This document shows positions 1 to 44,827 of a stretch of DNA of 53,568 nt, piece by piece. How positions within the stretch are numbered: the first letter of the stretch is position 1; every line of letters starts with the position of its first letter. The translations under genes and the position numbers were made by a program. Under the pieces are notes generated by a model. It ran no database searches. It had not been told where the DNA came from and was given only the letters and a program-made list of their open reading frames with translations. Source of the stretch: a virus (taxonomy: Duplodnaviria; Heunggongvirae; Uroviricota; Caudoviricetes); IMG/VR virus record IMGVR_UViG_3300048925_000677, positions 1 through 53,568 of that record. One strand, 5' to 3'.

Positions 1-360
1 ATGACGACGACAATGGCGCCCGAACGAGCGGCGTACTCCCGCATGGTTCTTGACCACATTCTCGCGAATCCACACTTGCACGATCAGATGTCATTCGCGC
101 AAAACACGCCATGCGGCACGACGCACTGCATTGCCGGCTGGGCTGTCGAATTGAGTCCAGACGTTGATGTCCAGTGGTGTCCCGGTGGCGGTTGGATTCT
201 CCTCCATAAGGGCCATCAGGTGGGGCTGAAGAGAGTCGCCGAGAAGCTTCTAGGGTTGACGGCCGTAGATGCCCATCGCCTTTTTCTCGACGAGATGGAC
301 AACCAAGACGCGCTAGACCTTTTCCGCATGTGGATCGAAGAGGCTGAGGCTGCGGCGTGA
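1..360 (+). CDS. hypothetical phage protein with HCIAGW motif (possibly 5'-truncated by window edge)
   Basis: ORF 119 aa; GTTHCIAGWA resembles the HCAxGA motif of the paralogs at 46875-48053; GTGA overlap with next gene. Confidence 0.65.
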   Translation: MTTTMAPERAAYSRMVLDHILANPHLHDQMSFAQNTPCGTTHCIAGWAVELSPDVDVQWCPGGGWILLHKGHQVGLKRVAEKLLGLTAVDAHRLFLDEMDNQDALDLFRMWIEEAEAAA

Positions 361-719
361 AGCAGGTCATCGTCATGCGGACCGACCTGCGCAATGCCGA
401 AGGTCACAAGATCCGCACCGGCAAGCTCGTCGCCCAGGGCGCCCACGCCTCGACGCTGGTCGTCGCCAAGAACGTCTTCGATCCCCGGGTTATCGATTGG
501 CTCGAATCGGACTACACCAAGGTCACCCTGCAGGTGGGTAGCGAAGAGGAACTGCAAGAGGTTTATGCGCACGCCCGCAACGCCGGCTTGCTCGCCGAGT
601 TCGTCGTCGACAACGGCCGGACCGAGTTTGGCGGCGTACTCACGGCGACCTGCTGCGCCATCGGGCCTGACGAGGACGACCGGATCGACGCCGTCACTGG
701 GGATTTGAGGCCATTGTGA
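357..719 (+). CDS. pth2: peptidyl-tRNA hydrolase, Pth2 family
   Basis: KQVIVMRTDL..GKLVAQGAHA N-terminus, DNGRTEF, TCCAIGP..RIDAVTGDLRPL C-terminus are hallmark Pth2 motifs. Confidence 0.93.
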   Translation: MKQVIVMRTDLRNAEGHKIRTGKLVAQGAHASTLVVAKNVFDPRVIDWLESDYTKVTLQVGSEEELQEVYAHARNAGLLAEFVVDNGRTEFGGVLTATCCAIGPDEDDRIDAVTGDLRPL

Positions 720-889
720 TCTGGATTCTGGCTGGCGGCATTCCGCTCGTGCTCGGGTTTGGCTGGTTTCTCTGGCATCTCCGGCGGCGGGGCGAGTTGT
801 GGGAATTCCTCGGTGTCGTCGGGGGAACGCTCGCGGCTATCGCCTGCTTTGTGGCTTTCTGCTACGGCGTTCAGCAGGTGCATCGATGA
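716..889 (+). CDS. small two-TM membrane protein (57 aa, below ORF-track cutoff)
   Basis: Manual translation VIWILAGGIPLVLGFGWFLWHLRRRGELWEFLGVVGGTLAAIACFVAFCYGVQQVHR; GTGA/ATGA overlaps at both ends. Confidence 0.75.
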   Translation: MIWILAGGIPLVLGFGWFLWHLRRRGELWEFLGVVGGTLAAIACFVAFCYGVQQVHR

Positions 890-1551
890 CGCCCGAGGTG
901 CAACACGCTAAGCGATTCTTCTGGACGTGGCTCATCGGCGCGACGGTGGCGAGCGTCGCCGGCAACGTGGTGCACGCACTACTCGGTCACGCAGCGTCCC
1001 CCGCAGTCGCCGCGGCGGCGGCCATCGTGCCTCCCCTGGTCCTGCTCGGAGCCACGCACGGCGTGCACGCTTTGGTGCAATCGCAGGTCACGGGCCTCGC
1101 GTACCGGGCGGCCATGTGCATCACGGTACTTCTCGCCCTGTGCGCCTTCATCCTCTCCTTCGAGGCGTTGCGCGACTTGGCGATCACCCAAGCGGGTATC
1201 CCGCAGCCGATTGGATGGCTGTGGCCGCTCGCCATCGACCTGTCCATCACGGGCAGCACGATTGCCCTGCTCGCCCTCACGGGACGCGCAAGGGACCAGG
1301 TCGTGCCGGAGGTATTGCAGCAGGATGCACAGACAGACCCGAACATGCCCGTCGTAACGGAGCATGCGGTGCTCGCCGAGCGGATCGTCTCGGAGGGCGT
1401 GACGCGCATCGACCGCAAGAAGGTCGAGCTGGTGCTGGCCAAGCACTCCGAAGGGTGCAAGCCGTCGATGATCGCGCGCGAGGTCGGCGTCGGATACGAG
1501 ACGGTGCAGCGCATCACCGAGCACACCGAGCGTCTGGTGCTCTCGAAATGA
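886..1551 (+). CDS. DUF2637-like multi-TM membrane protein with C-terminal HTH
   Basis: Four hydrophobic segments (SVAGNVVHA, SFEALRDLA, WPLAIDL) followed by KPSMIAREVGVGYETVQRI helix-turn-helix; start reassigned to ATG 886. Confidence 0.75.
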   Translation: MTPEVQHAKRFFWTWLIGATVASVAGNVVHALLGHAASPAVAAAAAIVPPLVLLGATHGVHALVQSQVTGLAYRAAMCITVLLALCAFILSFEALRDLAITQAGIPQPIGWLWPLAIDLSITGSTIALLALTGRARDQVVPEVLQQDAQTDPNMPVVTEHAVLAERIVSEGVTRIDRKKVELVLAKHSEGCKPSMIAREVGVGYETVQRITEHTERLVLSK

Positions 1552-1772
1552 CCGCCCCCAAAGACGAGATCATCTGGCGGCGAACTCCGTCCAAGCAGGT
1601 GCACCTCGACTACGAGAGCACCTGCGGACGCTGGAAGATCCTTCACCCCAAGAACGCCCCCTCCAACCGCTGGGAGCTTTACGACGCCGTGGCATGCCAG
1701 TGGCATGGAGATTGGCGAGGGCTGGCCGCGGCGAAGCAACGGGCCTACCAACTGCAGAGGATGGGCAAATGA
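1548..1772 (+). CDS. hypothetical protein
   Basis: MTAPKDEIIW..., ATGA overlaps at both ends. Confidence 0.7.
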   Translation: MTAPKDEIIWRRTPSKQVHLDYESTCGRWKILHPKNAPSNRWELYDAVACQWHGDWRGLAAAKQRAYQLQRMGK

Positions 1773-1996
1773 TCCCGGTGGCCATAGATCACAAGACCTG
1801 CGGGCACGTCAACCACACCACCATCGACGCGAGCCGCCACGAGGAGATTCACACCGCGATGTTGACCTTCATGTCGCGGTGGTACTCGCAGGCGAACCAT
1901 GCCCGAGCGGCGGGTAATGAGGCAGTCGCCCTGGCGTACGAGGCAGTCATAGACGACTTCGCCGAGTCGATGCGCGGATTCGAGGTAGAGCAGTGA
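1769..1996 (+). CDS. hypothetical protein
   Basis: MIPVAIDHKTCGH..., coupled start/stop overlaps. Confidence 0.65.
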   Translation: MIPVAIDHKTCGHVNHTTIDASRHEEIHTAMLTFMSRWYSQANHARAAGNEAVALAYEAVIDDFAESMRGFEVEQ

Positions 1997-2268
1997 GGAT
2001 CGTCAACGACCCGAACTGGGACGCGGACACGGCGCGACTCCAAGATCAGAAGCGGCGCGAAACCGGCTACGGCTTCTGCGACTACGAGATGCGTGCCGTC
2101 GAAAGTGCCGGCGGATTCATCGAGCACGCAATCGACGCCCTCGGGTTCGAAGTCGAGCACTTCAACATGCAAGACAGCCAGGCTGTGTCCTGCTGCCGCT
2201 GCGGCGGGCTGTTCAAGGAGGAGTTGCAGTACATGCGTAAGCACCGTCTTGCATGCGGGTGGCTGTGA
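1993..2268 (+). CDS. hypothetical protein (CCRCG motif)
   Basis: ORF 91 aa, GTGA overlap. Confidence 0.65.
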   Translation: MRIVNDPNWDADTARLQDQKRRETGYGFCDYEMRAVESAGGFIEHAIDALGFEVEHFNMQDSQAVSCCRCGGLFKEELQYMRKHRLACGWL

Positions 2269-2468
2269 TGGACTCGGGCGAAACCAACTACAGCATCATG
2301 CGCGAGCGCTTGATCACCGGCGAGATGAGCGATCTCAATCAATGGATCGAGCACGAGCCGTCCAACGCCGACATCCTCAAGCTGCTGGACGCGCTCCACG
2401 CCGACATAACCGGCACGACCACGCCCGCGGTGGACCGCATCTTGACGGACAGGTGGTACAGCTCGTGA
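2265..2468 (+). CDS. hypothetical protein
   Basis: ORF in coupled series. Confidence 0.6.
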   Translation: MMDSGETNYSIMRERLITGEMSDLNQWIEHEPSNADILKLLDALHADITGTTTPAVDRILTDRWYSS

Positions 2469-2611
2469 CCCCAGGTGAGCATGCATCCCTGGCCGGCCTC
2501 CCCCGAGGCGAGAACGGCCATCTCATCCCCGGGCATACCACATGGGACATGCTCGGCCCCAAGGCGAAAGCGCGTTGGGAACGAATTACAGAGGCGGTAT
2601 CGAATGTCTGA
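2465..2611 (+). CDS. hypothetical protein
   Basis: GTGA overlap; ...TWDMLGPKAKARWERITEAVSNV. Confidence 0.55.
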   Translation: MTPGEHASLAGLPRGENGHLIPGHTTWDMLGPKAKARWERITEAVSNV

Positions 2612-3002
2612 AACGCGAGATGCTCTCGCCACCGCCCTCGCTGGGCACAAGATGTGGGAGAACGACGAGGGCGGCATAGCACACCAGCGCCGGGTTGGCT
2701 ACTGCTCCTGCAGGGCGTGGAGGGGTCGCCCTTCCGACTTCGAGGCGCACAAGGCGGACATCCTCCTGGCATTACCAGGAATCGCCATCGTGAAGCTGGC
2801 CAAGCCCACCGATGACGACATCGACGGTGACCAGTACTTCTCAGAAGGCTCGGCCGCGGGCAATGTCCTCGTCACCCCGGGCTCGGGGATTGTCGGCCAC
2901 GGCGACTGGGAGTGGACAGTCGAGCAGGCGATGGATGTTGGGCGGCAGTGGATCTCGGCCGCACTGGTCGCCGACCCGAATCGAACGGTGGCCAATGGAT
3001 AA
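2604..3002 (+). CDS. hypothetical protein
   Basis: MSETRDALATALAGHKMW...CSCRAW; start reassigned to 2604. Confidence 0.7.
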   Translation: MSETRDALATALAGHKMWENDEGGIAHQRRVGYCSCRAWRGRPSDFEAHKADILLALPGIAIVKLAKPTDDDIDGDQYFSEGSAAGNVLVTPGSGIVGHGDWEWTVEQAMDVGRQWISAALVADPNRTVANG

Positions 3003-3141
3003 CACCCCGAGGACGCCCGAAAGCATCATCCGCTCCGTGCTGCTCGGATGCAATGTCGCGGCACCTAAGACGACCCAGGAACAGATCATGGTCGCGCTCA
3101 AATCCGAAGGCTGGGAGATCAGGAGGCGCCGCGGTGAGTGA
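2995..3141 (+). CDS. hypothetical protein
   Basis: MDNTPRTPESIIRS...; overlaps upstream stop. Confidence 0.55.
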   Translation: MDNTPRTPESIIRSVLLGCNVAAPKTTQEQIMVALKSEGWEIRRRRGE

Positions 3142-3172
3142 ACCGAGACTCGACCGGGGCGAGGAGTAGACC

Positions 3173-3328
3173 GTGACAATCGAATCGATGATGGTCCTAC
3201 TGGCCATCCCCTCGCACCGCCGCGAAGAGTTCGCCCAGATCTTCAACTCGCAAGCGCGTGAGGACATGGACTCGGTCATGCGCGCGCGACTTGCCCGAAT
3301 CATCTGGGATGCGATGCGCAATGGCTAA
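3173..3328 (+). CDS. hypothetical protein (51 aa)
   Basis: GAGGAG SD then GTG; manual translation MTIESMMVLLAIPSHRREEFAQIF... Confidence 0.6.
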   Translation: MTIESMMVLLAIPSHRREEFAQIFNSQAREDMDSVMRARLARIIWDAMRNG

Positions 3329-3518
3329 CCAGCAAGCGGCGGCCTACAACAAAGCCGTTGACGCACACAACAAGACAGTCCACAGCTTCAACGCGCTCAG
3401 TCGGCAAACAACACAAGGGACGAGCGTTAAAGCCGCCCTCAGTGCCAGCATTCAGTTGATCAAGGAGTTGATCAGCGTCAACGATCTGATCCTCGACGCT
3501 CTCAAGGAGAAGCTGTGA
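3321..3518 (+). CDS. hypothetical coiled-coil protein
   Basis: MANQQAAAYNKAVDAHNK...; overlaps both neighbours. Confidence 0.6.
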   Translation: MANQQAAAYNKAVDAHNKTVHSFNALSRQTTQGTSVKAALSASIQLIKELISVNDLILDALKEKL

Positions 3519-3706
3519 ACGGGTGGAAGATCGGCCCCGACTACTTCCAGGTCCACGACGGCGATAAGTGGTACACCGCAAGCAAGATGGAGGGCGGGCT
3601 CTGGTTCGTGGTGAACCACCAAGGCCGCGCCATCAGGCAGGGCACCGAGATTCACCGCCGTGTGGTCGCCGCGGTCGACGAGTGGCTGAAGGAGCAGGCA
3701 GCGTGA
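3515..3706 (+). CDS. hypothetical protein
   Basis: ORF 63 aa, GTGA overlaps. Confidence 0.65.
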   Translation: MNGWKIGPDYFQVHDGDKWYTASKMEGGLWFVVNHQGRAIRQGTEIHRRVVAAVDEWLKEQAA

Positions 3707-3954
3707 GCGACCCCGCAGAGTGGGCGGCGACCCGGGTGGTAACCCAGATGGATATCGACGACCGGATCTATTACCACCACTTGCTCGATTCCGCTCGCGA
3801 AGCCCTGGCGCCGATCCGGGACGTCCTAGACAAACTCGCCGAAGACACGGTGCCACCCTGCGACATCGTCACCCGATATGTCTTATTCGAGAAGGCGATC
3901 AGCGACCTTTCCCCGCTGGTTTACGCGACCGAGGAATTGGAGCTGGGGCCATGA
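3703..3954 (+). CDS. hypothetical protein
   Basis: VSDPAEWAATRVV...; coupled overlaps. Confidence 0.65.
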   Translation: MSDPAEWAATRVVTQMDIDDRIYYHHLLDSAREALAPIRDVLDKLAEDTVPPCDIVTRYVLFEKAISDLSPLVYATEELELGP

Positions 3955-4325
3955 GCGACCCGGAGCCGGCCGAGGATTGGCGCGTGAACGTCTATTCAAA
4001 TATCGCGGGCAACACAGTCGAGGTGATCCACATTCCAACCGGGGTCAGGGGCATCTGCGGCGAATACAAGAGCCAACTCATGAACCAGCGCGAGGCGTTT
4101 GGGCGGGCGCAGGCCCTTATCGAAAGGGGCGTAATGCCCACCCTTGCGGAACTCACTGAGCACGAACTCGACCGCCAGGAATACAACTGCGCCGTCGCGA
4201 ACGGCCTGATCATCAAGGCTCGCCGCATCAACCGAGTCATGAAGGCACGCGAACGGAAGTGGGGCCTTGACGGAATTCAGTGCCACGCCATGCTCAAGGA
4301 GGCCCAGAAGTGCGCCTATGGGTAG
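3951..4325 (+). CDS. protein with N-terminal class-I release-factor (RF-1) domain-3-like segment lacking GGQ
   Basis: DWRVNVYS..NTVEVIHIPTGVRGICGEYKSQLMNQREA matches the RF pattern D.RID...(GGQ loop)..[29 protein letters not shown]. Confidence 0.6.
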   Translation: MSDPEPAEDWRVNVYSNIAGNTVEVIHIPTGVRGICGEYKSQLMNQREAFGRAQALIERGVMPTLAELTEHELDRQEYNCAVANGLIIKARRINRVMKARERKWGLDGIQCHAMLKEAQKCAYG

Positions 4326-4579
4326 ATGACCTCCGCCCGGCCCCCGAGGGGTGGTACTGGGCGAAAACTTCGGAACACGCCATAGAGATGCTCATTCTCG
4401 GACGGTCCGACATCACTGAGATGTCCCTCGATCACGATCTCGGCGGCGATGACACCACCCGCCCCATTGTTCTGTGGATGTGCGAGAACGAATCCTGGCC
4501 CACAACAGTCCACGTCCACACAGCGAATCCCGTTGGCCGCGAATGGCTTGAAGGAATGATTGAAAGGCACAAACCATGA
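4310..4579 (+). CDS. cyclic-phosphate-processing receiver-like (cREC) domain protein
   Basis: LWVDDLRPAP, SLDHDLG, HVHTANPVG motifs; AAGGAGG SD before GTG 4310. Confidence 0.8.
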   Translation: MRLWVDDLRPAPEGWYWAKTSEHAIEMLILGRSDITEMSLDHDLGGDDTTRPIVLWMCENESWPTTVHVHTANPVGREWLEGMIERHKP

Positions 4580-4764
4580 ACTGGATACTGACAATCCGCG
4601 CGATAGCCATCCTACTGTTCGTCGCGGCGTTCGTCGCACTCTGCGCGGCCGGCAACGAGGTCGACAATCATCATCCCCAGATGGCATGGCTGGGCGTCGG
4701 TGTGTCGGCGACCCTCGCGCTGTCCGGATGCATACTGGTCGGCGTCGGGTGGGGAAGATCATGA
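4576..4764 (+). CDS. small two-TM membrane protein
   Basis: Two hydrophobic stretches, ATGA overlaps. Confidence 0.7.
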   Translation: MNWILTIRAIAILLFVAAFVALCAAGNEVDNHHPQMAWLGVGVSATLALSGCILVGVGWGRS

Positions 4765-5057
4765 GTGACCCTGTAATCCCGGCCATCGCCGCCGGTAAGC
4801 CATCGGGCGATGGTCCGCCGCCCGTGAAGCTCGGTGACGTATTCAAGCCCATTGAACGCACCAGCACCGCCGATGAGTGGAACAAGGCCCGCGACCTCCT
4901 TGGTGAGCAGGTGCGCATCATGCTCGACCTCGAAGACGAACATGCTGTGGTTGAGGGTCGACTCCTGTCTGTATGCGAGGACGGCTCCTTCGTCGTCCTC
5001 GACGACATGGGCATGAAGCACTACTGCTGGCCCCTCCTGAAAGTGGTGAAATCATGA
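4761..5057 (+). CDS. hypothetical protein, possible Sm/SH3-like beta barrel
   Basis: LLGEQVRIML..VEGRLLSV..DGSFVVLDD pattern; start reassigned to 4761. Confidence 0.6.
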   Translation: MSDPVIPAIAAGKPSGDGPPPVKLGDVFKPIERTSTADEWNKARDLLGEQVRIMLDLEDEHAVVEGRLLSVCEDGSFVVLDDMGMKHYCWPLLKVVKS

Positions 5058-5287
5058 CGCTACGCATTGCGTGCGCCGCGGCGCTGGCGCTGCTGCTCGC
5101 TGGGTGCAGCAGCAACTCGGGTGCGCCGCAGTTGTCGAACTTCGAGCGGTTCGAACAGTCCTGCAAGGACATGAAGGGCTTCGTCGTTCGGGTCGAGCCG
5201 CCAGGATGGAACGACACCGGTCGCTACGACTGCATCGTCGACGGCAAGAAGGTGTACGTCCCCGACGCGACAGAGGTGCTTCAGTGA
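5054..5287 (+). CDS. small lipoprotein
   Basis: Signal peptide with lipobox LLAG-C. Confidence 0.75.
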   Translation: MTLRIACAAALALLLAGCSSNSGAPQLSNFERFEQSCKDMKGFVVRVEPPGWNDTGRYDCIVDGKKVYVPDATEVLQ

Positions 5288-6108
5288 CCCTTCGCATCGT
5301 GACGCATCGCAATTGGTTAGCTGAGCAGTTCAAGCAGCTCTCCAATGTCCACGTCGTTCAGGACTTCGGACTCGACTTCGACCCGGCAAACCTCGACGAC
5401 TACTGGTGGGCGCCGGGCGCGTGGGTGGCGCGCGCTCACAAGTCCGGAATGCGGCTGCCGCTAATGTCCTGCGGTGTCGACTGGCTACCCAACCTCCCTG
5501 AGGCGTACCGCGGCCGGAAGGTCCAGAACAAGCTGCTCGCCGAGATCTTCCCCGGCAAGACGCAGGCCACCTTCGCCAAGCTTCCCGAGGTCAAGCACGA
5601 CGGCGTCCCAGCTAAGGTCTACGGCGAGTGCTACCTGCGAGAAACGCTGAAGCAGTACAACCTGCCGGCGGAGACCATCTGGCAATTGCAGGAGCCGGTG
5701 GAATTTGTCACCGAGGCGCGTTTTTGGATTGCCCATCGGCATATCGTGGCGTTCAGCCCATATCGCCACCGTGACTGGGTGTGGGGCGCCGAGAATCGCC
5801 CGTTCCACCCCGTTTGGGATGCGCGGATGAGCAAGATGGCCCGGTTCCTTGACGGCATGCTGAGCAATATGAGCGTGAGACTGCCGCGGGGATGCGTTAT
5901 CGACGTGGGTATTACTGACGATGGCGACGAGATGGTCATCGAGGCGAACGCCGCATGGTCCTCCGGCCCGTACGACGGCGACCCCGCCGGCATCTTCGAG
6001 GCGATCAAGGCAAGCCACGATTTCGAGGGGAAATACCCTGAGTGGGCGTGGCGACATAGTCCTGTATTTGACAACGTCGCGCCGTTGAAGATCCGCCAGC
6101 GCCTGTGA
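5284..6108 (+). CDS. ATP-grasp domain protein, R2K/DUF4343-like
   Basis: FAKLPEVKH, QLQEPVEFVTEARFWI, VIDVG..MVIEANAAWSSGPY ATP-grasp motifs. Confidence 0.8.
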   Translation: MTLRIVTHRNWLAEQFKQLSNVHVVQDFGLDFDPANLDDYWWAPGAWVARAHKSGMRLPLMSCGVDWLPNLPEAYRGRKVQNKLLAEIFPGKTQATFAKLPEVKHDGVPAKVYGECYLRETLKQYNLPAETIWQLQEPVEFVTEARFWIAHRHIVAFSPYRHRDWVWGAENRPFHPVWDARMSKMARFLDGMLSNMSVRLPRGCVIDVGITDDGDEMVIEANAAWSSGPYDGDPAGIFEAIKASHDFEGKYPEWAWRHSPVFDNVAPLKIRQRL

Positions 6109-6294: not shown

Positions 6295-6323
6295 TTGACA
6301 CCCTTATTGCTTGTCCCTATGTT
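6295..6323 (+). promoter_or_regulatory. SigA-type promoter upstream of lsr2
   Basis: TTGACA (6295-6300), 17 bp, TATGTT (6318-6323). Confidence 0.75.
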
Positions 6324-6343
6324 TGTCTTACCGGACAAACATA
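6318..6343. promoter_or_regulatory. 10-bp perfect inverted repeat overlapping the -10 box (candidate operator)
   Basis: TATGTTTGTC-ttaccg-GACAAACATA. Confidence 0.55.
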
Positions 6344-6363
6344 CGAAAAGGGGATGAGCGCTC

Positions 6364-6720
6364 ATGGCCAGTCGCACAGTCACAATCATCAACGACGACC
6401 TCGATAACACCGAGGGCGCGTCCACACGTGAATTCTCCATCGGCGGCCAGGCCTACACCATCGACCTCACCGACGCCAACTACGAGAAGATGCTCAAGGC
6501 GATGTCGAAGTACGTGCAGTTCGGCCGGAAGGTCGGGCCGCGGCGAGCCGGCCGAGGGCGCGCGCATCGGATTTCGAGGGCCCCGGAGAAGAGCGCCACG
6601 ACGGCGGAGATTCGCGACTGGGCGAACAAGAATGGCCACAACGTGAAGAACCGCGGGCGTGTGCCGGATGACGTCGTCGAGGCCTTCAACTCCGCCAACA
6701 GCACGCCCGCGGAAGTCTGA
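6364..6720 (+). CDS. lsr2: Lsr2 family nucleoid-associated protein
   Basis: N-terminal DDLD..F.I.G..Y.IDL dimerisation domain; C-terminal IRDWA..NG..V..RGRV DNA-binding domain. Confidence 0.95.
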   Translation: MASRTVTIINDDLDNTEGASTREFSIGGQAYTIDLTDANYEKMLKAMSKYVQFGRKVGPRRAGRGRAHRISRAPEKSATTAEIRDWANKNGHNVKNRGRVPDDVVEAFNSANSTPAEV

Positions 6721-28801: not shown

Positions 28802-30535
28802 TTACTCCGGGGTCAGCAGGATGGCGTTGACGGTTTTGCCGAGATTGGCGATCTGACGCTGCGTCCGAACGACGGGCGCCTCTTCGCGCTTGCCGTCGCC
28901 GATTTGCACCATGACGGTGGCCCGTTCCTGCCGGGTATCGGAGAGGATGATGTTCTCGATGTAGTCGGTGTAGACCATCCAGTTACGAATCACCGTCGCG
29001 AGAGAGCCGGGCATGATATCGCGCCCGATTTCGTACGGAATTCCGTTCTGGAATGTCACCTGACCGGAGATGTATCCGCGGGTATTCCACATCTCGCGCT
29101 TGAGCGCGAAAATGGCGTCGAGGGTGTACGGCGCCGATCCCGTGGGCACGAATACCTCGGGATATCCGTATGGGCCCATCTTCACTCGGCGGGTGTAGTT
29201 ATCCGCCAATTGGAATGCGAGCAATACGTCGTTGAATAGGCCGTCGAACATGTTGGACGCAATTCCCGTAATACCGACAATGACCATGATCATGTCAAGA
29301 ATGAACGAGAACGTCGCGTTAATTAGGTCATCTATCCACTTCGGAGATTTGCCGCCGACAATTACGCGCCACGATTCGGGCGTGTGATGCGACATTTTCC
29401 CCTGGACGCCACTCTTTGGATCGTCGGCATTGAGAACTACCCACGGGTCTTCGAAATGGATTCCAAGCGCTGGTGCGATATTCCATCCGTCGGGCTTGTA
29501 TTCGCCCTTAGGGTTCAGGAATGGCGCGAGGATCTCGCCGAATACGGAAGCCTGCAGATCAACGGCCTGACGCAAGATTCCGTCGAAGAACGTGCCGGTC
29601 GGACCAACCACGCCCATACGGTCTTTGATGTCGACGACAATGGTCGCGACCGTGAGCGGGAATTTACCAACGCCAGGAGGCTGAGGCATTCCGGGAAGCC
29701 AGAGATTCACCTCGACGCACAGGCCGTTGTCCTGCACGATCTTTTCGAAGATGGAGGCGATCTTGTCCATGCGCCAGTTCACGGTGATGAATGGCGAAGT
29801 GTCCTTGAGTGGATTACTCGGCACGACATAAATAGGCGTGCGAATCATTCGCATGACATCGGCTACGTCGAACTTATTGTTCGGGCCGTCGACATCCTGC
29901 AGGAGCGCAGTTTGGAACCAGGAGTGCCAATCGAGATTGCCGCTAAGGAGGTTATTCACCATGTTCCACAAGCCCGACTGCAAACGGAATGCGTTCACGC
30001 CGAGGATGTATTTCAGGCAGGAAATTGCGGGACCAATTGCGACGCCTCGTGACGGCACCTGGATTTGCAGTGGCAGCAAGAAGTTCGGCCAAGCGAGAAT
30101 CTTCAGAAGCCAGGCGTAATCGCCCTCAAGCTCGCACTCGACAAAGTCGGCCCTACCCGGGCTATTGAAGTTGTCGTGAGCCACCTTGACGCGCCCGGAC
30201 CACATAAGATTGCCGACCTCGATAGTGATCGGGACGGTTGTCTCGTGACAGGTAAGGACGGTATTAGCGGCCGGGTCTGAGCGGGCCAGGGTGAGTTTGC
30301 CGGTGGGCACCTGATTGCGCGGCCAAGAGGCAGCCAATTCGAGATAGTTCGCGCACTCCCACATCGGGATGTAGAACTTGTCGTAGATCGTGACGACGAT
30401 TCGGGTATCGAAGATGGCAGCCTTTTCAACCGCGGCTGCCATCTTCGCCGCGCTCACCGCCGTGTACATATCGGAGGCGAGCTTTGCCTTGAGGTCATCG
30501 AGGGACTGCTTGTCGAATTCAATCGACAATGACAA
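28802..30535 (-). CDS. minor tail protein (tail hub / Gp37-like)
   Basis: Second large gene after tape measure; WPNF.LPLQIQ, VIVGGKSP.W motifs of mycobacteriophage hub proteins. Confidence 0.85.
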   Translation of the reverse strand: MSLSIEFDKQSLDDLKAKLASDMYTAVSAAKMAAAVEKAAIFDTRIVVTIYDKFYIPMWECANYLELAASWPRNQVPTGKLTLARSDPAANTVLTCHETTVPITIEVGNLMWSGRVKVAHDNFNSPGRADFVECELEGDYAWLLKILAWPNFLLPLQIQVPSRGVAIGPAISCLKYILGVNAFRLQSGLWNMVNNLLSGNLDWHSWFQTALLQDVDGPNNKFDVADVMRMIRTPIYVVPSNPLKDTSPFITVNWRMDKIASIFEKIVQDNGLCVEVNLWLPGMPQPPGVGKFPLTVATIVVDIKDRMGVVGPTGTFFDGILRQAVDLQASVFGEILAPFLNPKGEYKPDGWNIAPALGIHFEDPWVVLNADDPKSGVQGKMSHHTPESWRVIVGGKSPKWIDDLINATFSFILDMIMVIVGITGIASNMFDGLFNDVLLAFQLADNYTRRVKMGPYGYPEVFVPTGSAPYTLDAIFALKREMWNTRGYISGQVTFQNGIPYEIGRDIMPGSLATVIRNWMVYTDYIENIILSDTRQERATVMVQIGDGKREEAPVVRTQRQIANLGKTVNAILLTPE

Positions 30536-30543: not shown

Positions 30544-33084
30544 TTAGTCTGGCCAGCGCCTCTTCGGGGTGATGGAGGCGATGACGCGCGAGTCGTAGTC
30601 GCCGCCTTCGATTTCGACGGTCATCTGAACGGTCTCAGCGACGGACCCGAGATTTCGGGCGGGAATAGGCTTGGACCAACGCCCCTTGAGAAGGGAGTAC
30701 AACTTGTCGTTTTTCGGTGCGCCGCTTGGGATCTGGTAGACACCACGCTTGCCGGGATGCGTCTCGATGAGCGCGATCTCGCCCTCCTTGAGGGGGCCGA
30801 AAACGATGTTGGCGTCAGTGCCCGCGCCATTGCTGAACCGGAATGTCCCCGGGCCATAAACCACGAGAGTCGGATGGGCCGGCTGGTCACCGAAGTTGGT
30901 GAGATTCAGGTATCCGGACTGCTTGATCGCGGCGTTGTCGCCCATCCGCCAGTCCAAGACCGACGGCGGGATCTTCTGGCTGAAGGTGCCGTCACCGGAC
31001 TCCATGCCAAAGCCGCCGCGGCGGTAGTTCACGCCCAACGCAGAGGCGGTGCCCTTCTCCTTGTAGGTGAAAAGCGTTGAGCCGTGCCGGCGGACGACGA
31101 ATGTCCGCGGTTCGCCCGCGCGACCGCACACCAGGGACCATGACTCACCCGGGTAGGGCATCCACGGCAGCACCTGCTGCTTGTTCCACACCTCGACGCC
31201 GGCCACGAACGCGGACAGGCGAACCCACTGGGGGCCGATCCGCAGGCGAATCCCCGTCGGGGCGGCGTCATTGGTGTCGCGCCGCCCCCAGACGTCGATG
31301 AAAGCCGCGTCAGGGAAGGGGAACTGGAAGAGGTCGCCGATGGTGATCGAATGGACCTGGAAGTCGGTGTCGGTCTTCTCGGGCGCGCCGTCGGTGCTGG
31401 TGTAGACCTGCACGTAGGGATCGATCCCGCCGGTGAGTGCGGCACCCTTCATCTCGGGCACGCGCTGCTTGGCGTAGGCGCCCTGGAAGGACACCTGATA
31501 GGTCGTGACGCCGCCCGCGGTCACCGGATTGGAGACCGCGACGTCGCCAATCGCGATGCTGGGCAAAGCCTCCAGGGCGAGCCTGACCGTGTCCGCTGTC
31601 GCCGGATGACTGATCGACGAAGTCGTCTCGCTGCCGTTGTAGGTCAGATTCCACGTGAGTGGCGATCCGTGAATCTCGACGGTCTGCACCTCACTTGCGC
31701 CGAGCCAGCGGTTGATGCACTTGCGCCCGAGGGCGGTATCAACCCAGACGGTGTTTCCGTTAACTGCACGGACGTAGCCCGGGCCGGTGCCCGTGTAGTA
31801 CAGCGGCCACGCGCCCCCCAACCCTGTGGTCGTCGTGGTGGCGAAGTTGTCCAGGTCCGTCATCGGGATGTTGATGCCGTCGGAGTTGCCACCGGCGCGG
31901 ATGAACTTCACCTGCGCCGGAGTTGCCTGAGTGAGGATGGCTCCGCCGGCGGACAGGCCAAAGCCCACGCCGAGGTGATCGAGATCAGCCACGTGGTGCA
32001 GATAGCCGTCGGCGTTGACGATGGTGTGGTCGTTGCGCTTCAGGACAAGCTCGAAGGGGTCGTCCTCCGTGCCGCAGTAGAAGCTGAAAACGTCATTGCG
32101 CAGCGGCGGGATGAGAACGAATTCTCGATCCAGGACCGTCTCTTCAAAGTCGATAAATGCGGAGATCTGGCAGAAGCCCCAGCCGACAGTGGCGCGGACG
32201 CCGTCGCCGTTCCAGGTCCCGTCGGGATTGCGCCCCATGCGGCCCCAGATGTGGTTCGCCGCACCGGCGCCCGGGGTGAACTCGGGAGTGTTGGCGATCT
32301 GGATGGTGATCTTCTGCATGTGTCCAGGCGTGGAGTAGGCCGCCTTCGGGCCGATGACCACGCTCTTGCGACCCGTGAAGGTCGTGTCGGGGTCATTGGC
32401 GGTCCAGCGCGCGCGGCCGTGGCCCTTCTTGGTGTCTTCCGCGGTACACACGCCGCCGCCGGGGCCCGTGTAGGTCTGCGCCCAGTTGACGCCGAGCGTT
32501 CCCTCGCCGTCGCGGTTGAAGTCGTCGAACGCCGCTTCGAAATCCAGCGAGAATTCAGAGACCGAGTCGACCGACTCCCAGAAGGCGTCGTCGTTACGGA
32601 CCGTCCAGGTGAACGCCCACTCGCGCGTCTCGACGCCATGGTGGCGCTTCTCGGGCGGGGCCTTATAAAGCCTTGGCTTGCACGACCACACGCCGGCGTC
32701 CGGCGTGACCCAGTACAGCGTGCCCGGGTTCTCCGGGTCCCACGCGGCGTACCACTGGCGGATGACGCGACGTAGACCCTCGGGGGTCCGGGCGGTGGCC
32801 ACCAGCTTCATCTGGATTTCGGCCGGGTCGTAGACCGTGTCGGTCCATGTGGCGCCGTCCTGGCGGGCGCCCTTGTGATCTAGATGAGAAAAGATAGGGT
32901 GAAGGCCTTGCATGCCTTCGGCGAGGATGACTCCCTCGGTGACGCCAGGGAACGGCTGCGGGCCACCGTGCAAGAAGAAGGTGGCTTCGCCATCCGCGCT
33001 GACGTAGAGAATGAATGGTTCAGCGCCCGACTTGAGGAGCTGAATCCCGTAAGGCGTGATGCGCCCCGCGGGGAAGATAGACAT
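30544..33084 (-). CDS. distal tail (Dit-like) minor tail protein with inserted domains
   Basis: First gene after tape measure; QDGATW.DTVYDP motif; 846 aa. Confidence 0.82.
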   Translation of the reverse strand: MSIFPAGRITPYGIQLLKSGAEPFILYVSADGEATFFLHGGPQPFPGVTEGVILAEGMQGLHPIFSHLDHKGARQDGATWTDTVYDPAEIQMKLVATARTPEGLRRVIRQWYAAWDPENPGTLYWVTPDAGVWSCKPRLYKAPPEKRHHGVETREWAFTWTVRNDDAFWESVDSVSEFSLDFEAAFDDFNRDGEGTLGVNWAQTYTGPGGGVCTAEDTKKGHGRARWTANDPDTTFTGRKSVVIGPKAAYSTPGHMQKITIQIANTPEFTPGAGAANHIWGRMGRNPDGTWNGDGVRATVGWGFCQISAFIDFEETVLDREFVLIPPLRNDVFSFYCGTEDDPFELVLKRNDHTIVNADGYLHHVADLDHLGVGFGLSAGGAILTQATPAQVKFIRAGGNSDGINIPMTDLDNFATTTTTGLGGAWPLYYTGTGPGYVRAVNGNTVWVDTALGRKCINRWLGASEVQTVEIHGSPLTWNLTYNGSETTSSISHPATADTVRLALEALPSIAIGDVAVSNPVTAGGVTTYQVSFQGAYAKQRVPEMKGAALTGGIDPYVQVYTSTDGAPEKTDTDFQVHSITIGDLFQFPFPDAAFIDVWGRRDTNDAAPTGIRLRIGPQWVRLSAFVAGVEVWNKQQVLPWMPYPGESWSLVCGRAGEPRTFVVRRHGSTLFTYKEKGTASALGVNYRRGGFGMESGDGTFSQKIPPSVLDWRMGDNAAIKQSGYLNLTNFGDQPAHPTLVVYGPGTFRFSNGAGTDANIVFGPLKEGEIALIETHPGKRGVYQIPSGAPKNDKLYSLLKGRWSKPIPARNLGSVAETVQMTVEIEGGDYDSRVIASITPKRRWPD

Positions 33085-33124
33085 AGAGCCCCTCTCATCA
33101 GGGTCGGCCTCAAAAAGGGACGAG

Positions 33125-33159
33125 AAAGGGGGCCGAGACTCGAAAGTCCCGACCCCCCT
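33125..33159 (-). terminator. intrinsic terminator after tape measure gene
   Basis: On - strand GGGGGTCGGGACT-TTCG-AGTCTCGGCCCCT followed by T-rich tract. Confidence 0.7.
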
Positions 33160-33171
33160 TCACTATTCGGT

Positions 33172-36100
33172 TTAGCCGCCCGGGTTGATGTAGGCGTTGT
33201 ACATCGCACCGCCCACGTCGTTCGCGAGTTGCTGGGCGTTGCCAGCGCGATCCGGCGGGATGGCGATACTGATGTGGTTGGTCTGCTGAGGACCGCCCTG
33301 CGCACCCTGGCCGGGCTCTCCTGGCTGACCGGGCTGACCCTGCGGGTTGCGAGGATCGTTCGGGTCGACCTTGGAGTTCTTGCCCTGCTGTCCTGCGCCC
33401 ATGCCAGTGGCGGGGCGTGCTCCAGCGAGACCGCCGGCGATGCGCGTCAACCAGCTTGCGCCAGTTGAGTTACCGCCACCGTCGGGATCGGACACGCCAA
33501 AGGTCTCCATGAGGCCCTGCATGCCGATACCTGCAGCCTTGCCGCCGAACGCGATGGTCTTGTTGATCGCCTTCATCGCCATGTCGGCTGCAGCGCCCAT
33601 GCCGGGCATCATCATGTTCGCAGCGCCACCAGCCCCACTCAGCGCGGCACCGATAAGGCCACCGCCAACGCCAGCATTGCCGCCGCCCTCGGGCGTCCAG
33701 CTCGGTGCCGCCTGCTCCTCGGGAGTGGTCGGGACGTAGGACGCAGTCGGAGGCGTACTCGGTGTCACCATGCCTGGGCCAAAGGCGTTCGGGAATCCCG
33801 AAGACAGTGGTCCGCCCGTGGGGACGCTGCCGGGAGCCGGTAGCGGAGGCAGTGGCGGGGTCAGGCCGGGGTCCGTGTTCGTCGACGGGCCAGGGACGAG
33901 TCCTGGCGGTAGTGTTACGGGTGTACTACTGACCGCCGGCGGCATAGTGGCCCCGGGAGTCGCGGAAACCACAGGGGGAACCGGGACGCCGGGTGAACTA
34001 CCCACGCCACCAACACCGACGGGACGGTAGAACTGCTGAGCCATGACCGACGAACCCTCGCCACTACGGCCACCTGCATCGGCAGCCGCTTGACTGCCCC
34101 AGTTGAAGTTCGTCCCGCCGGGCAGGGTCGCCTGAGCGTGACCGCTGTCGAATCCGACCCGCATGTCGCCGGGTCCGCCGGGTCCGGGCAAGAAGCCTCG
34201 GCTCCGGAGGAACTCCTCCATGTTGGCAGTAGTGACGTTGGCGCCACTGGTCGGCATACCGTCGAGCATGTTGACCAGATCTTCGACGGCGCTGGAGCAA
34301 TCCGCGAGACCCTGGGTGAGGTCACCGCGAGCCTCCTGCGTGTAGGTGCCCTTCGGCACCCGCGACAGAAGGGCGGCGTCGCCCGGATATGCGGTCGTGG
34401 CACCGGGATTGAGATACGAAGCGCCGTAGGTCCCGTAGGAGCCGTAGGTGCTACTGCCGGTGTCGTTGCCCCCGGTGTAGCCCAACATCCCGAGGATGCC
34501 GGTACCCTTGGCGCCCGCGGCCATTGGCGCGAGCATGCCCTGGAGCGGAGCGGTCGCCAGTGCGGCGATGAACCGAACCAGGTTGTCTGCCAAGCCCGGA
34601 AGACCCTTGGAGAAGCCGAGGTCATTGTCGAGTTGTGCACCGATCTGGCCAAACCCGTCGGAGAGCTTGGACAGCTTGCCCTGTGCCTTCTCGGCGAGGT
34701 CGTACTGCGCCTGGCGGAAGTCGGCCTCCTCGTCGGCGACCTTTTCTCGCGCCTTGAGGATTTCGAAGTCCGAAGACACGCCGGCTGCCTGCATCGCGGC
34801 AAGCTGCATATTGGCGTCGCGGACATCGCGAGCCTGCTCGATAACCTTCTGGTACGCCGCCTGAACCTCACGAGGGTCGCCCATGCCACCCATTGGCATG
34901 GCGCCAATCTGCGGCATGAACGAACTCGGATTCAGCTTCGCCAGTTCCGCGGCGATCTTCTCCGAATCGGACGGCTTACTCCCGCCGCCACTTTCGGGGA
35001 CGGGCGGGATGTCGAACTGCGTGGACGCGGGGAATCGCGGACCCCCAGGTTCAGGGGTCGACCCCCACCATGACCCAGCAGGCCCGGGGGCCTGCTCGCC
35101 AGGAGCGGGGGTTCCCCACCCTGGGCGAACGGGAGGAACGTAGCCAGGCTCGCCGGGGTCGGGGCCTAGTCCACCTTGACTTTTCGGGACGCGCGCCAGA
35201 TCCTGGAGGCCGCCCCGCTGGGCAGTAGCCCGCTCTGCGGGCGTGGCGTCGGCCGGGAGGACGTCGTTCGGGTTCATTGGAACCTGCTTGGCGTTCTGGA
35301 TCTTGTTGAGCGTGTAGAGCAACGACCCCGCCGCGGCGGCCAGCAGTCCAATGGGCCCCATGGCGGCTGCGGCAAGACCTGGGAGCGCGCTCAACGCTCC
35401 GCCAACCCCGCCCATGCCCAGTGCGCCGGCCAGGTTCATGACGCCAGCGATGGCGCCGAGCATCTTCGCGCCAACGAACACCGCGAGCGCGGTGGTGGCG
35501 AGATTCTCCCAGCCGCCCAACGCGTCCGCGACAGGCTTGATGGCGTTCAGGAATCCGTTCACGGCATTAGCCGCTCCCTGGATGGCTCCGATTACGCCCT
35601 TGACTGCCCCAGCAGCGCTTTCGATGGTCGCTTTAAAATCCTCGGGCGACTTGTTGCCAAAGGTCTGATAGACCCACTTGCCAAGGTCTCCGATGAACCC
35701 GATGAGCATCTTCGTTGCGTCGATGCCCTTGTTGATGAAGGCCTCGAAGGTCCCGTCCTGCTGGGCGCCCTGGATGAACTTCGCGAACGAGTTTGCCGCA
35801 TTGGTGATCGCGTCGGCTAGTCGCGGCAGGAACTTCGATCCCGTCTCCGCAATCCCCAGCAGCGCGTCGGCGAACGGCGCGACCGCGGGCTCCAGCTTCT
35901 GGAACGCCAAAAGGATGTTGTTGATGATGGTTTCGAGGGACTTCATGTTGTCCGGCGTCGCGAACTCGGTGAGGACGTTGCCCATCATGTTGTTCATCGA
36001 GCCGGCGATGCCGGTCGTAAGGCGTTGCGCGCCAGGGCCGAACTGGTTCGAGGCAAACTCCAGCATCCCCGAGCTATCCTTGAACAGGGCGTCCTGAGTG

Positions 36101-42505: not shown

Positions 42506-43201
42506 CTACCGAGGGTCACTCTCGACCCTCTCGAAATCGTTGATCATGGGGCTGTAGATGTCTTTCAGCCGCTTTCTGTCGTCAGTTCTCAGGTGCGTGC
42601 GGTGCTCCAGGCGGACATCCCACAAAGGCTCAGCGGGAAGCGCTTTCGGGCCGGCAAGGAATTCACGCTTGCCGTCGACCGGGGCGGTGACGACGAAGTG
42701 CGCCTGCTCGATCCGAATGCCGGGGATGGCGCGGAACAGGCACCGCAGCGGATGCTGGGCGTAGCTGGAGGCTTCGCGCTGCCAAAGCATCACCTCGGCG
42801 GCGTGTGCGTCAGTGGCCGCCAGTCGAGACTTGGTGTCCGCGGGTACATCGGAGATGATCTCATCGGCGTCAACCCGGAAAAACCAGTCGCCCGGCTGCG
42901 CAAACGTCATGCCGAGCTGGAACATGAAGTCCCGCTTGGCAACTTCGCCACCCCACTCGTCCCCCCACCAGACCTTGCGCGACTGATGGATGGTGCAACC
43001 GATGCCGGCGCCCGCGGCCGTGCGCAGGATCGCGTCAGCCTGGTCGGTGCCGCTCGCCGGCTGCATCATGGCACCCGGGAAGCCCGCATACGGGCCGTCA
43101 ACGGCGATGATGTGGTCGGCCAGTCGCGCGGTAGCGGCAACGCACTCGGCGAGCCAGGTGGGGCTCTCCTCGTACCAGTTCAGCAGTGCAATTATGGCCA
43201 T
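42506..43201 (-). CDS. glycosyltransferase family 2-like protein
   Basis: IALLNWYEE..WL..C, IIAVDG, WFFRVDADE (DxD). Confidence 0.8.
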   Translation of the reverse strand: MAIIALLNWYEESPTWLAECVAATARLADHIIAVDGPYAGFPGAMMQPASGTDQADAILRTAAGAGIGCTIHQSRKVWWGDEWGGEVAKRDFMFQLGMTFAQPGDWFFRVDADEIISDVPADTKSRLAATDAHAAEVMLWQREASSYAQHPLRCLFRAIPGIRIEQAHFVVTAPVDGKREFLAGPKALPAEPLWDVRLEHRTHLRTDDRKRLKDIYSPMINDFERVESDPR

Positions 43202-43419
43202 GCGGCCACCCGAAGACACACGGTCGGGAGGATGCGGGGCGGGTCGGTGAGCGTTCGTGCGTATTCGATACCGGTGATCCGGTATCTACCGCCGTCAATC
43301 TCGACGACCTCTCCAATGTTCAAAACCGCATCTTCATAGGGAAGCTGGCGAGTGTCCACCGCGGCGACGCGGCCCCGGCCGGTGATTGTGAACCAATCGT
43401 CGGCTGCTAGAAATTTCAC
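43192..43419 (-). CDS. stand-alone EF-Tu domain II-like beta-barrel protein
   Basis: DDWFTITGRGRV..LNIGEVVEIDG..ITGIEYARTLTD versus EF-Tu EDVFTITGRGTV..I.V.EEVEIVG..VTGVEMFRKLLD. Confidence 0.7.
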   Translation of the reverse strand: MKFLAADDWFTITGRGRVAAVDTRQLPYEDAVLNIGEVVEIDGGRYRITGIEYARTLTDPPRILPTVCLRVAAWP

Positions 43420-43607
43420 GCTGGCCTCACCCTCCCTACGGGTACGCACACCGTCTGGTGGGGCGCCAAACGCTCAGTGCCGCTGCCGTAGTCGGCCTCG
43501 GGGTCGATAGCCACGGTGCAACGCGCCCAGCCGTGGTCGATCCGCTCGACGTGGCCACGAAGGTCTTCGCCATCGAAGTCGACAATGACGTCGTCGCCGG
43601 GATTCAT
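43416..43607 (-). CDS. small SH3-like hypothetical protein
   Basis: PGDDVIVDFDG....GHVERI..GW pattern; ATGA overlaps. Confidence 0.65.
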   Translation of the reverse strand: MNPGDDVIVDFDGEDLRGHVERIDHGWARCTVAIDPEADYGSGTERLAPHQTVCVPVGRVRPA

Positions 43608-44827
43608 CGTCGCCCCAATCGCTTAACGGTCACGCCATCCCGATCCGGAATGACGCCGAAGGGGTCGACCACAACCGAGCCCTCGGGGAACTCCAGCGAG
43701 CGATACCGCTCATTGTTGGTGGCCAAGAAGTACACAGCCTTGTACATGTAATCCACATCGTTGACGTGCAGGAACTGCTCGCCAGACTGGCGGAGGATAT
43801 CGGCCATCAGCATTGCCGCGCTGCCGGTTTCGATGTCGGTCTCGGGCTTGAAGGCCGTTCCGAGCACGATGAGTGGCAGATCATGCTTCTCGGCGTAGTA
43901 GGAGGCGACCTCGGCGTGCCAGGCCTCATACTCCTGGCGGGCGTGCATCAGCGCGTCCCAGATGTTGAAGGACATGTCAACCTCTTCGGCGAGCCAGGAC
44001 AGCGCGATATTGTCGCGCGGGTGGCAGCCGCCACCGTCGGACATGCCGGCATCCATGTAGCGGCTCGACAGTAGCCGGCGGTCGGCGAGATCCCAGGCTG
44101 CCTTCATGTCGTCGAAATTCATGCCCATGCGCTCGCACATCTCGCCCCAGCAGTTGGCGATGACCGTCTTGGCGGTGATCCACGTGTTGTACGAGACCTT
44201 GATTCCCTCGGCCGTCGTCACGCCGGTGCGGATGCACGGGGCATCATTGATCGTGGCGTAGAACTCCTCCAGGAGATCCGCGGCCTCGTCGCTGCAGACG
44301 CCGATCAGGTTGAACTCCGGGTGTAGGTAGTCCTGCAGGACGGTGCCCATCGCGATGAACTGCGGGGTGTAGACATAGTCGACGAAATCGTTGAGTAGCG
44401 GGGCGATCTCGCGGGAGAACGTGCCGGGCAGGCAGGTGGAGATGACCGCGACAGTCTTGCGCACGCCCAGCCGCTCGCACGCCGCGGCGACGGCGGCCAC
44501 GCCCTCCTTCAGAAAGGTGTAGTCGAAATCCTCTCTGGCGTCGGGCATGATCGTGGCGCCCTCAAATTCCGGCGCGTGCGGGGTCTGGATGGCGACGAAG
44601 ATGATGTCCGAGTCGGCAACTACCTCGTCGACGGTGTCGTGCCACTGGATGTCATGATTGTCGAGCAGCGGCTGCAGCCCCTCCTCGCGGAACGGGATGA
44701 AGCGCGACTCCAGGTAAGTCTTGACGTCAGGATTGGCGTCGGTTCCGCAGACGGTGTGGCCGCGGCGTTCGATGGCTAGTGCGACCGGCAAGCCGAGCTT
44801 GCCCAGTCCGACATGACCAATTCTCAA
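43604..44827 (-). CDS. UDP-glucose/GDP-mannose dehydrogenase family protein
   Basis: GLGKLG Rossmann motif, IFVAIQTP, STCLPG, GGGCHPRD catalytic Cys, LG.AFKP.TD. Confidence 0.93.
   Translation of the reverse strand: MRIGHVGLGKLGLPVALAIERRGHTVCGTDANPDVKTYLESRFIPFREEGLQPLLDNHDIQWHDTVDEVVADSDIIFVAIQTPHAPEFEGATIMPDAREDFDYTFLKEGVAAVAAACERLGVRKTVAVISTCLPGTFSREIAPLLNDFVDYVYTPQFIAMGTVLQDYLHPEFNLIGVCSDEAADLLEEFYATINDAPCIRTGVTTAEGIKVSYNTWITAKTVIANCWGEMCERMGMNFDDMKAAWDLADRRLLSSRYMDAGMSDGGGCHPRDNIALSWLAEEVDMSFNIWDALMHARQEYEAWHAEVASYYAEKHDLPLIVLGTAFKPETDIETGSAAMLMADILRQSGEQFLHVNDVDYMYKAVYFLATNNERYRSLEFPEGSVVVDPFGVIPDRDGVTVKRLGRR

Follow-up and report, generated by a model that had tools for sequence, protein, structure and literature searches.

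A release factor (RF) homologue is linked to RNA repair in the bacterial pair PrfH-RtcB2, an established system of ribosome rescue and 16S rRNA repair (PMC9304027, PMC9223846) and thus an example of the two processes coupled on the ribosome. Phage RNA repair has so far been known as a kinase-phosphatase acting with a ligase: Pnkp and Rnl of T4, and Pnkp and RNA ligase of cluster J, E and L mycobacteriophages, are phage answers to host anticodon nucleases and other RNases. We analyzed a 53,568-bp stretch of viral DNA (the window; bases 3974-57541 of the 71.9-kb IMG/VR virus record IMGVR_UViG_3300048925_000677, CheckV completeness 62%) that opens with an operon encoding a 124-amino-acid (aa) protein derived from RF domain 3 without its GGQ loop (the mini-RF), a cyclic-phosphate-processing receiver (cREC) protein, a Pth2-type peptidyl-tRNA hydrolase and an R2K-clade ATP-grasp. 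A stand-alone copy of domain II of elongation factor EF-Tu is encoded elsewhere in the window. Judged from sequence profiles, the new element is that the GGQ-less RF domain is linked to RNA repair as well as EF-Tu domain II, which suggests that phages repeatedly pair two dead A-site-factor fragments with several different RNA-end enzymes.

Like PrfH-RtcB2, the locus places the gene of a cut-down class-I RF homologue beside the gene of an enzyme for 2',3'-cyclic-phosphate RNA ends, a role that is predicted for the phage cREC. Unlike PrfH, the mini-RF is domain 3 only, without the decoding-site domains and with GGQ deleted, so that no peptide release is expected. Its partner is cREC, or HIT and RlaP or a HAD phosphatase in other phages, and not RtcB, and no ligase is adjacent. 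Accessory Pol-beta nucleotidyltransferases accrete around systems of the PrfH-RtcB2 type, and relatives of C12orf65 carry a fused domain for binding 2',3'-cyclic ends (PMC6514570). The rescue factors ArfB, ICT1 and C12orf65 resemble the phage protein in that RF domain 3 stands alone and has a helical extension on its C-terminal side, but the phage protein lacks GGQ, and its C-terminal helix of about 59 residues is strongly conserved and found elsewhere as an independent small protein. Set beside the repair systems of T4 and the cluster J, E and L phages, cREC would be the end-healing part; in contrast to them, the whole 71.9-kb record holds neither a kinase-phosphatase nor a ligase, and the translation-factor fragments, Pth2 and ATP-grasp found here are additions absent from the classical systems.

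The single mini-RF sequence matched the Pfam family RF-1 (PF00472) at E 7e-4 and 19.9 bits, under the cut-off of 35. An exhaustive HMMER search of 1.8 billion representatives resolved the 124-aa protein into two modules. Residues 3-58 belong to a small family of proteins of 60-146 aa, and a ten-sequence profile of this family (A1) matched domain 3 of RF2 and RF1 in the PDB (E 5e-15), as well as PrfH (4e-10) and C12orf65 (1e-9); ArfB was reached at E 0.15 only. Exactly seven residues, GAGGQHV, are deleted in the family, and the positions flanking the deletion vary freely. A residual 'AGN' was considered as a replacement for GGQ and rejected, since these positions vary freely across the family. 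The AlphaFold2 (AF2) model of the protein (predicted local distance difference test score, pLDDT, 86) consists of three strands and a helix, after which comes a single helix of 59 residues (65-123). RF1, RF2, PrfH or C12orf65 accounted for 49 of the top 50 Foldseek matches, and a 63-residue RF2 fragment (6c4h_v) superposed on the model with a root-mean-square deviation of 1.8 Å. Domains 2 and 4 of RF1, RF2 and PrfH, for codon recognition and the decoding site, have no counterpart in the model, which comprises domain 3 and the one long helix. Because the GGQ loop is deleted, the mini-RF would be unable to hydrolyze peptidyl-tRNA in the canonical way.

The second module is of different origin. 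Residues 65-104 (DRQEYNCAVANGLIIKAR...) occur elsewhere as separate proteins of 37-68 aa with 66-86% identity, and the same helix module forms the C-terminus of another protein (P0008). No mini-RF lay beside the stand-alone helix-module copy in contig L112, the copy whose contig was readable. On these alignments and the model, the 124-aa protein is predicted to be a catalytically dead RF domain joined to an unrelated, strongly conserved helix.

The 124-aa protein gave no tblastn match in 50,697 phage records, and a word-indexed protein search matched the protein itself only. A pattern search with the mini-RF alignments produced pattern matches, with no confirmed relative in viral or metagenome contigs, and the short contigs bearing other family members (L007-L010) held no informative neighbors. 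GGQ-less RF domains are also encoded by Pseudomonas phage 73 (ORF037) and Vibrio phage 1.161.O. These too are short phage proteins limited to a copy of RF domain 3, but they belong to other subfamilies and their loop is substituted rather than cleanly deleted. A literature search found no paper on phage GGQ-less RF domains, and phages go unmentioned in a 2019 survey of release factors.

The EF-Tu-like gene encodes a 75-aa protein with few relatives and no Pfam match at E values up to 10. When a four-sequence profile (A3) was compared with the PDB, nearly all matches, including the top 19, were to EF-Tu and covered domain II, with a best E of only 6e-4. All of the top 50 Foldseek matches to the AF2 model (pLDDT 85) were EF-Tu/EF1A or EF-Tu-containing fusions, with probabilities of 0.9-1.0 and template-modeling (TM) scores of 0.5-0.6. 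The protein corresponds to domain II only, without the GTPase domain and domain III of a true elongation factor. The fold supports the identification in the preliminary description, which was made from the window sequence alone, and the weaker profile matches point the same way; the gene lies on the minus strand. It is wedged between glycosyltransferase-like and nucleotide-sugar-dehydrogenase-like open reading frames and overlaps both (window 42506-44827, minus strand).

The two fragments recur together outside the window. In an unrelated metagenomic phage of 44% G+C (contig L006), they are fused: a 146-aa protein (P0015) carries an N-terminal EF-Tu domain II barrel, homologous to the 75-aa window protein (BLASTP E 3e-8), and a C-terminal mini-RF. 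In the same gene array, 2 kb upstream of the fusion, is a gene for a Swiss-army-knife RNA-repair HAD phosphatase (HAD_SAK_2, E 2e-22). In Myrna, gp2 is a GGQ-less mini-RF whose gene overlaps those of gp1, a HIT protein (E 1e-10), and gp3, an RlaP (E 2.7e-22). This triad of overlapping genes (Myrna, L104:1-1767) is kept in Phabba (L106:1-1910), although the two mini-RFs are only 48% identical. The labels given to the Myrna proteins are misleading: gp3 is called 'NrdC' and gp2 'putative RF-2'. RlaP, a nucleotidyltransferase of RNA 3'-end repair, extends damaged 3' ends by one or two nucleotides, and repaired tRNA regains function (bioRxiv 10.64898/2025.12.29.696909). Upstream of the triad in these circularly permuted genomes is an EF-Tu-derived fragment, gp266 in Myrna at 1.6 kb (L107:8041-8529) and gp091 in Phabba at 2.5 kb (L113:2018-2494). 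This 160-aa protein is annotated as hypothetical; all of its PDB matches (43/43) were to EF-Tu, and the alignment spans the last helix of the EF-Tu G domain through domain II.

Myrna and Phabba share more with the window than the mini-RF. They were the only phages with homologues of both the window Pth2 and the window R2K (4 of the 50,697 records, against 0.004 expected if the two were independent), so that Pth2, R2K and a GGQ-less RF form a trio common to both. ScoobyDoobyDoo, a congener of Myrna and Phabba, has R2K and RlaP and lacks the mini-RF and the window-type Pth2.

The cREC protein matched PF20274 at E 3.2e-27 (95.5 bits against a cut-off of 27). It keeps all 30 columns that are invariant in 19 homologues, including DD, SxDHDLGGDDTTR and HxxNP, and the acidic receiver-type residues D6, D7, D41, D43, D47 and D48; the N-termini of the 19 homologues confirmed its start codon. 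The family is widespread, with at least 1193 clusters of homologues, and homologues were present in 113 of the phage records. cREC proteins are predicted to act on 2',3'-cyclic RNA ends or on cyclic ADP-ribose derivatives, are often fused to Nudix domains, and have been linked computationally to RNA-repair and ribosome-rescue neighborhoods, as the preliminary description had said (PMC7824862, PMC9503650). The nearest homologue (80% identity by BLASTP, 82% in the 19-homologue alignment) is encoded with RtcB and a metallophosphoesterase in a syntenic operon of metagenomic contig L097, from a related temperate phage, and another relative is found near RlaP and a metallophosphoesterase. The L097 RtcB (L097:3669-5792) is 707 aa long, much longer than usual, and its gene lies in the integrase-proximal operon upstream of those for a GmrSD_N protein and the cREC homologue.

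Pth2 matched PF01981 over profile positions 1-113 of 115 (E 3.5e-27, 95.4 bits against a cut-off of 23) and aligned end to end with a solved archaeal Pth2 (chain 2zv3_A, E 1.3e-17). The GK..AQ and D-x-G-x-T positions are kept (tGKlvAQgaHa and vvDnGrTef in the alignment with 2zv3_A); these include conserved Lys and Asp/Thr positions that we take to be catalytic. The protein is 52% identical to the Pth proteins of Baka, Myrna and Sandalphon, had homologues in 33 of the phage records and is probably an active enzyme by these conserved positions. Myrna and Phabba carry, besides their window-type Pth2, a second, divergent Pth2-family gene (33060-33284 and 32460-32684, respectively), which ScoobyDoobyDoo also has (29440-29715). 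As the preliminary description had stated, Pth detoxifies tRNA acetylated by TacT-type GNAT toxins; it does so in M. tuberculosis too (PMC4942678, PMC9241777). The phage peptidyl-tRNA hydrolase could likewise remove N-blocked aminoacyl groups from tRNA; the published cases, however, concern the bacterial Pth1 fold, whereas the phage enzyme has the unrelated Pth2 fold.

The R2K protein matched PF18299 and PF14243, each at E 3e-19 and about 70 bits against a cut-off of 26. Residues invariant in an alignment of four sequences are K99 and K104 (KLPEVK), E144, R146, D207 and the E220-A-N222 of an ExN motif. R2K.2 and R2K.3 are told apart by a C-terminal ExN as opposed to ExGD (PMC4431377), and the two lysines with the ExN motif make the window protein R2K.2-like by the criteria of that founding paper. 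It shares this signature with the CDC123/R2K ATP-grasp clade, and its Myrna homologue is in the founding alignment (PMC4431377). CDC123 acts on eIF2-gamma, a paralogue of EF-Tu; for the phage protein a connection to translation is analogy only, the substrates of R2K.2 being uncharacterized. Homologues were found in 6 of the 50,697 records, all from Maddy2, Myrna, Phabba or ScoobyDoobyDoo, and a related-locus search with the R2K protein found no relatives in viral contigs. The R2K gene overlaps a metallophosphoesterase gene in Myrna (L101:4007-5630) and ScoobyDoobyDoo (L105:4007-5642). Near R2K in both phages are genes for nicotinamide adenine dinucleotide (NAD+) salvage (NadV and phosphoribosyl pyrophosphate (PRPP) synthetase), and in ScoobyDoobyDoo also a polynucleotide kinase. 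The preliminary description had tied R2K as well as cREC to RNA-repair and ribosome-rescue neighborhoods; for R2K this did not stand, as the clade has been tied to protein modification in phage-host conflict (PMC4431377). The Pth2, cREC and R2K matches, all above the Pfam cut-offs with family-invariant residues kept, complete a set of five family assignments that held in profile and Foldseek checks.

RF domain 3 and EF-Tu domain II both contact the tRNA 3' end in their parent factors. The idea that the fragments recognize an acceptor end follows from this shared contact. Our tentative best reading, to which we would give somewhat less than an even chance, is that the window carries loosely linked accessory genes acting on the RNA of the translation machinery, in which the dead RF domain and the EF-Tu domain II guide RNA-end healing and phage translation is kept running. 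The GGQ-less RF domain and the EF-Tu barrel would have no catalytic role and would instead recognize the ribosomal A site or the acceptor end of tRNA. They would cooperate with RNA-end-healing enzymes: cREC here, HIT and RlaP in Myrna and Phabba, and the HAD phosphatase in L006. RNA cut by endoribonuclease toxins of the host or of a rival would then be sealed by a host ligase or by one from another part of the phage genome, much as PrfH works with RtcB2. Pth2 may separately free tRNAs blocked by peptidyl or N-acyl-aminoacyl groups, while R2K may join a peptide or amino acid to a protein target. The net effect would be to sustain phage translation under attack on tRNA or rRNA. In favor of this reading, the mini-RF is tied to RNA-repair families in three unrelated genomes (cREC; HAD_SAK_2; HIT and RlaP). 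The 16-bp overlap of the mini-RF and cREC genes, the EF-Tu-derived fragment near the Myrna and Phabba triad, the cREC relatives beside RtcB, RlaP and metallophosphoesterases, the shared Pth2 and R2K homologues and the RNA ligase of Baka also speak for it. A more specific version, in which the two fragments form one non-catalytic phage adaptor that passes a damaged or stalled A site or tRNA acceptor end to end-healing enzymes, would be an undescribed specificity factor of phage RNA repair assembled from pieces of host translation factors and seems to us unlikely.

Several observations weigh against guided RNA-end healing. No cREC member has been characterized biochemically, the activity of the family being predicted only (PMC9503650), and no link of R2K to RNA has been published (PMC4431377). 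The GGQ-less RF genes of Pseudomonas phage 73 and the Vibrio phage have no RNA-repair neighbors. Neither an RNA ligase (PF09414) nor an RtcB (PF01139) was found in the 71.9-kb record at its 62% completeness, which extends to the whole record the earlier statement that the window lacks an RNA ligase; the relative Baka does carry an RNA ligase. In the window genome the EF-Tu barrel and the mini-RF are 39 kb apart and on opposite strands, and in Myrna the R2K, mini-RF and Pth2 genes are scattered over a 27-kb arc. Myrna and Phabba are one lineage, so that independent co-occurrences number two or three. No conserved five-gene arrangement was found, and cREC was not found in any of the other mycobacteriophages with Pth2 or R2K that were searched for it (Baka, Maddy2, Myrna, Phabba and ScoobyDoobyDoo). 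A complex prediction for the mini-RF N-domain and the barrel scored 0.00, to which we give no weight either way.

The five genes are therefore not a conserved kit; the set is loosely linked and not obligately co-inherited. Of the multi-part counter-defense proposed in the preliminary description, the common theme of tRNA, ribosome and RNA ends was borne out, as was the recurrence of the mini-RF with RNA-repair genes and EF-Tu domain II, while conservation of all five genes was not, cREC being absent elsewhere. The Pth2/R2K/mini-RF trio recurred in Myrna and Phabba, without cREC.

This looseness bears on the possibility that the association is a mosaic coincidence, in which Pth2, mini-RF, cREC and R2K were acquired separately into a typical hypervariable actinophage accessory region, serve unrelated processes, and resemble a kit only in that the few genes open to recognition happen to touch translation. 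The neighbors of Pth2, cREC and R2K vary from phage to phage, and each gene has its own distribution: in Crater the cREC gene follows the tail genes and has no partner, in Baka and Sandalphon Pth2 is accompanied by two other small genes, and in the Myrna group R2K goes with the metallophosphoesterase. The missing cREC in the other Pth2 and R2K phages fits such a history, as does the lack of a Pfam family for 14 of the 20 genes in the operon. Coincidence accounts poorly, however, for a mini-RF that recurs with an EF-Tu barrel in three genomes, one of them a fusion, and with three different RNA-repair families. The reappearance of the rare trio in Myrna and Phabba and the 16-bp overlap of the mini-RF and cREC genes also argue against it, and we regard a mosaic origin as rather unlikely.

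Prophage ends often hold genes that are expressed in lysogeny. The position of the operon at the very end of a prophage (see below) is consistent with a second alternative, that the mini-RF and EF-Tu domain II are translation mimics. As catalytically dead copies of A-site factors, the two fragments might occupy the A site or titrate partners such as PrmC, EF-Ts, or toxins or sensors that use EF-Tu or RF. They would thereby redirect host translation or, from the prophage, block superinfecting phages, and RNA repair would not be involved. The Pseudomonas and Vibrio GGQ-less RF domains, which lack repair neighbors, fit this proposal. The tight coupling of the mini-RF gene to cREC here and to HIT and RlaP in Myrna and Phabba does not, nor does HAD_SAK_2 on the fusion contig L006, and no toxin-antitoxin-like partner or regulator is evident beside the genes. 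We consider mimicry, with either outcome, improbable. Least probable is a counter-defense around NAD+ and ADP-ribose, in which cREC would handle cyclic ADP-ribose-type products or signals, R2K would act in the same nucleotide-centered conflict and the translation-factor fragments would be passengers: the second predicted substrate class of cREC, its frequent Nudix fusions (PMC7824862, PMC9503650) and the flanking of NadV and PRPP synthetase by R2K and the HIT/mini-RF/RlaP triad in Myrna and Phabba are in its favor, but no NAD+-related Pfam family occurs among the called window genes and the nearest cREC relatives adjoin RtcB and RlaP, not Nudix, sirtuin or Macro domains.

Should the two fragments of the favored reading be targeting modules for RNA-end healing, they would explain how small repair enzymes locate damaged tRNA or ribosomes, and would give a handle on cREC and R2K, families with computational predictions only. 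The idea is directly testable because all parts are small soluble proteins from a mycobacteriophage lineage with cultured relatives (Myrna and Phabba).

Features of the operon and the distant EF-Tu-like gene are listed in Table 1. The preliminary description had proposed a single coupled operon, and a public gene call made independently on a contig of 99.99% identity gave the same 20 genes with identical coordinates. At 14 of the 19 junctions the genes share 4 bp (ATGA/GTGA), and at three they share 1, 8 and 8 bp; the overlap between the mini-RF and cREC genes is 16 bp, and gaps were seen at two junctions only (135 and 31 bp). A promoter scan upstream of the first gene found no consensus site. 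The label 'early' given to the operon would follow from synteny only. The sole homologue detected for the 77-aa gene belongs to Gordonia phage Yvonnetastic, where it precedes the cREC gene by about 100 bp (L003:4668-4889; phmmer E 8e-8).

Table 1. Positions in the window of the accessory operon, its genes of interest and the EF-Tu-like gene.
Feature	Position	Strand	Basis and remarks
Integrase-proximal accessory operon, 20 mostly overlapping genes	1..6108	+	Gene calls, junction table, synteny, end of host homology; reads inward from prophage/host junction
Pth2-type peptidyl-tRNA hydrolase	357..719	+	PF01981; full-length match to 2zv3_A
N-terminal module of 124-aa protein, predicted RF domain 3 with GGQ loop deleted (mini-RF)	3951..4142	+	Family profile, AF2 model, Foldseek
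C-terminal module of 124-aa protein, one long predicted helix with conserved core DRQEYNCAVANGLIIKAR	4143..4325	+	Homologues, AF2 model
cREC (cyclic-phosphate-processing receiver) domain protein	4310..4579	+	PF20274; 16-bp overlap with mini-RF gene
77-aa lipoprotein-like gene between cREC and R2K	5054..5287	+	Membership in the set doubtful
R2K-clade ATP-grasp, R2K.2-like	5284..6108	+	PF18299 and PF14243
Stand-alone EF-Tu domain II copy, 75 aa	43192..43419	-	Profile A3, AF2 model, Foldseek; inside late/glycan gene block

Rather than a free phage genome, the window is a cluster-J-like temperate mycobacteriophage integrated as a prophage in a soil mycobacterium. Left of the window, the record holds an esterase-like gene and a major facilitator superfamily (MFS) transporter gene with host-like codon usage, and the transporter protein is 97-98% identical to those of Mycolicibacterium cosmeticum-type genomes. 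This flanking sequence identifies the host as Mycolicibacterium cf. cosmeticum. Four genomes of this type match the record at the DNA level up to base 3317, at a distance of 657 bp from the first base of the window, and the prophage/host junction (about record base 3317) falls within the 5' end of the transporter gene. Because host homology stops 657 bp left of the window, the window is read as an integrated prophage and the operon as its outermost transcription unit, directed toward the prophage interior. About 16 codons at the start of the transporter gene in the record have no counterpart in the four uninterrupted host genomes.

The gene layout fits the cluster J mycobacteriophages, with synteny to the Baka gp85-gp57 operon and to contig L097. 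In Baka, an integrase is followed by a leftward operon (Xis, a methyltransferase, many small genes, Pth gp70 and Lsr2 gp63) that converges on the lysis genes, and the metagenomic relative L097 has the same plan. Ku and FtsK-like genes farther right in the record also fit the cluster-J group. No integrase was found in the 71.9-kb record.

Further observations concern genes in and beyond the operon. The gene at window 886-1551 encodes a DUF2637 membrane protein with a C-terminal helix-turn-helix, labeled 'LamD-like' in relatives, and nothing else in the operon resembles cultured phages at the DNA level (cluster K: TM4, Milly and ZoeJ; 72-73% identity). The Lsr2 gene at window 6295-6720 is preceded by a near-consensus promoter-like site (TTGACA-17-TATGTT), and the 255-bp gap separating it from the operon is the only long gap. 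To the right of the window, a Ku-domain protein (L095:7970-8857; record ~66.4-67.4 kb) carries an additional Lsr2-type DNA-binding domain.

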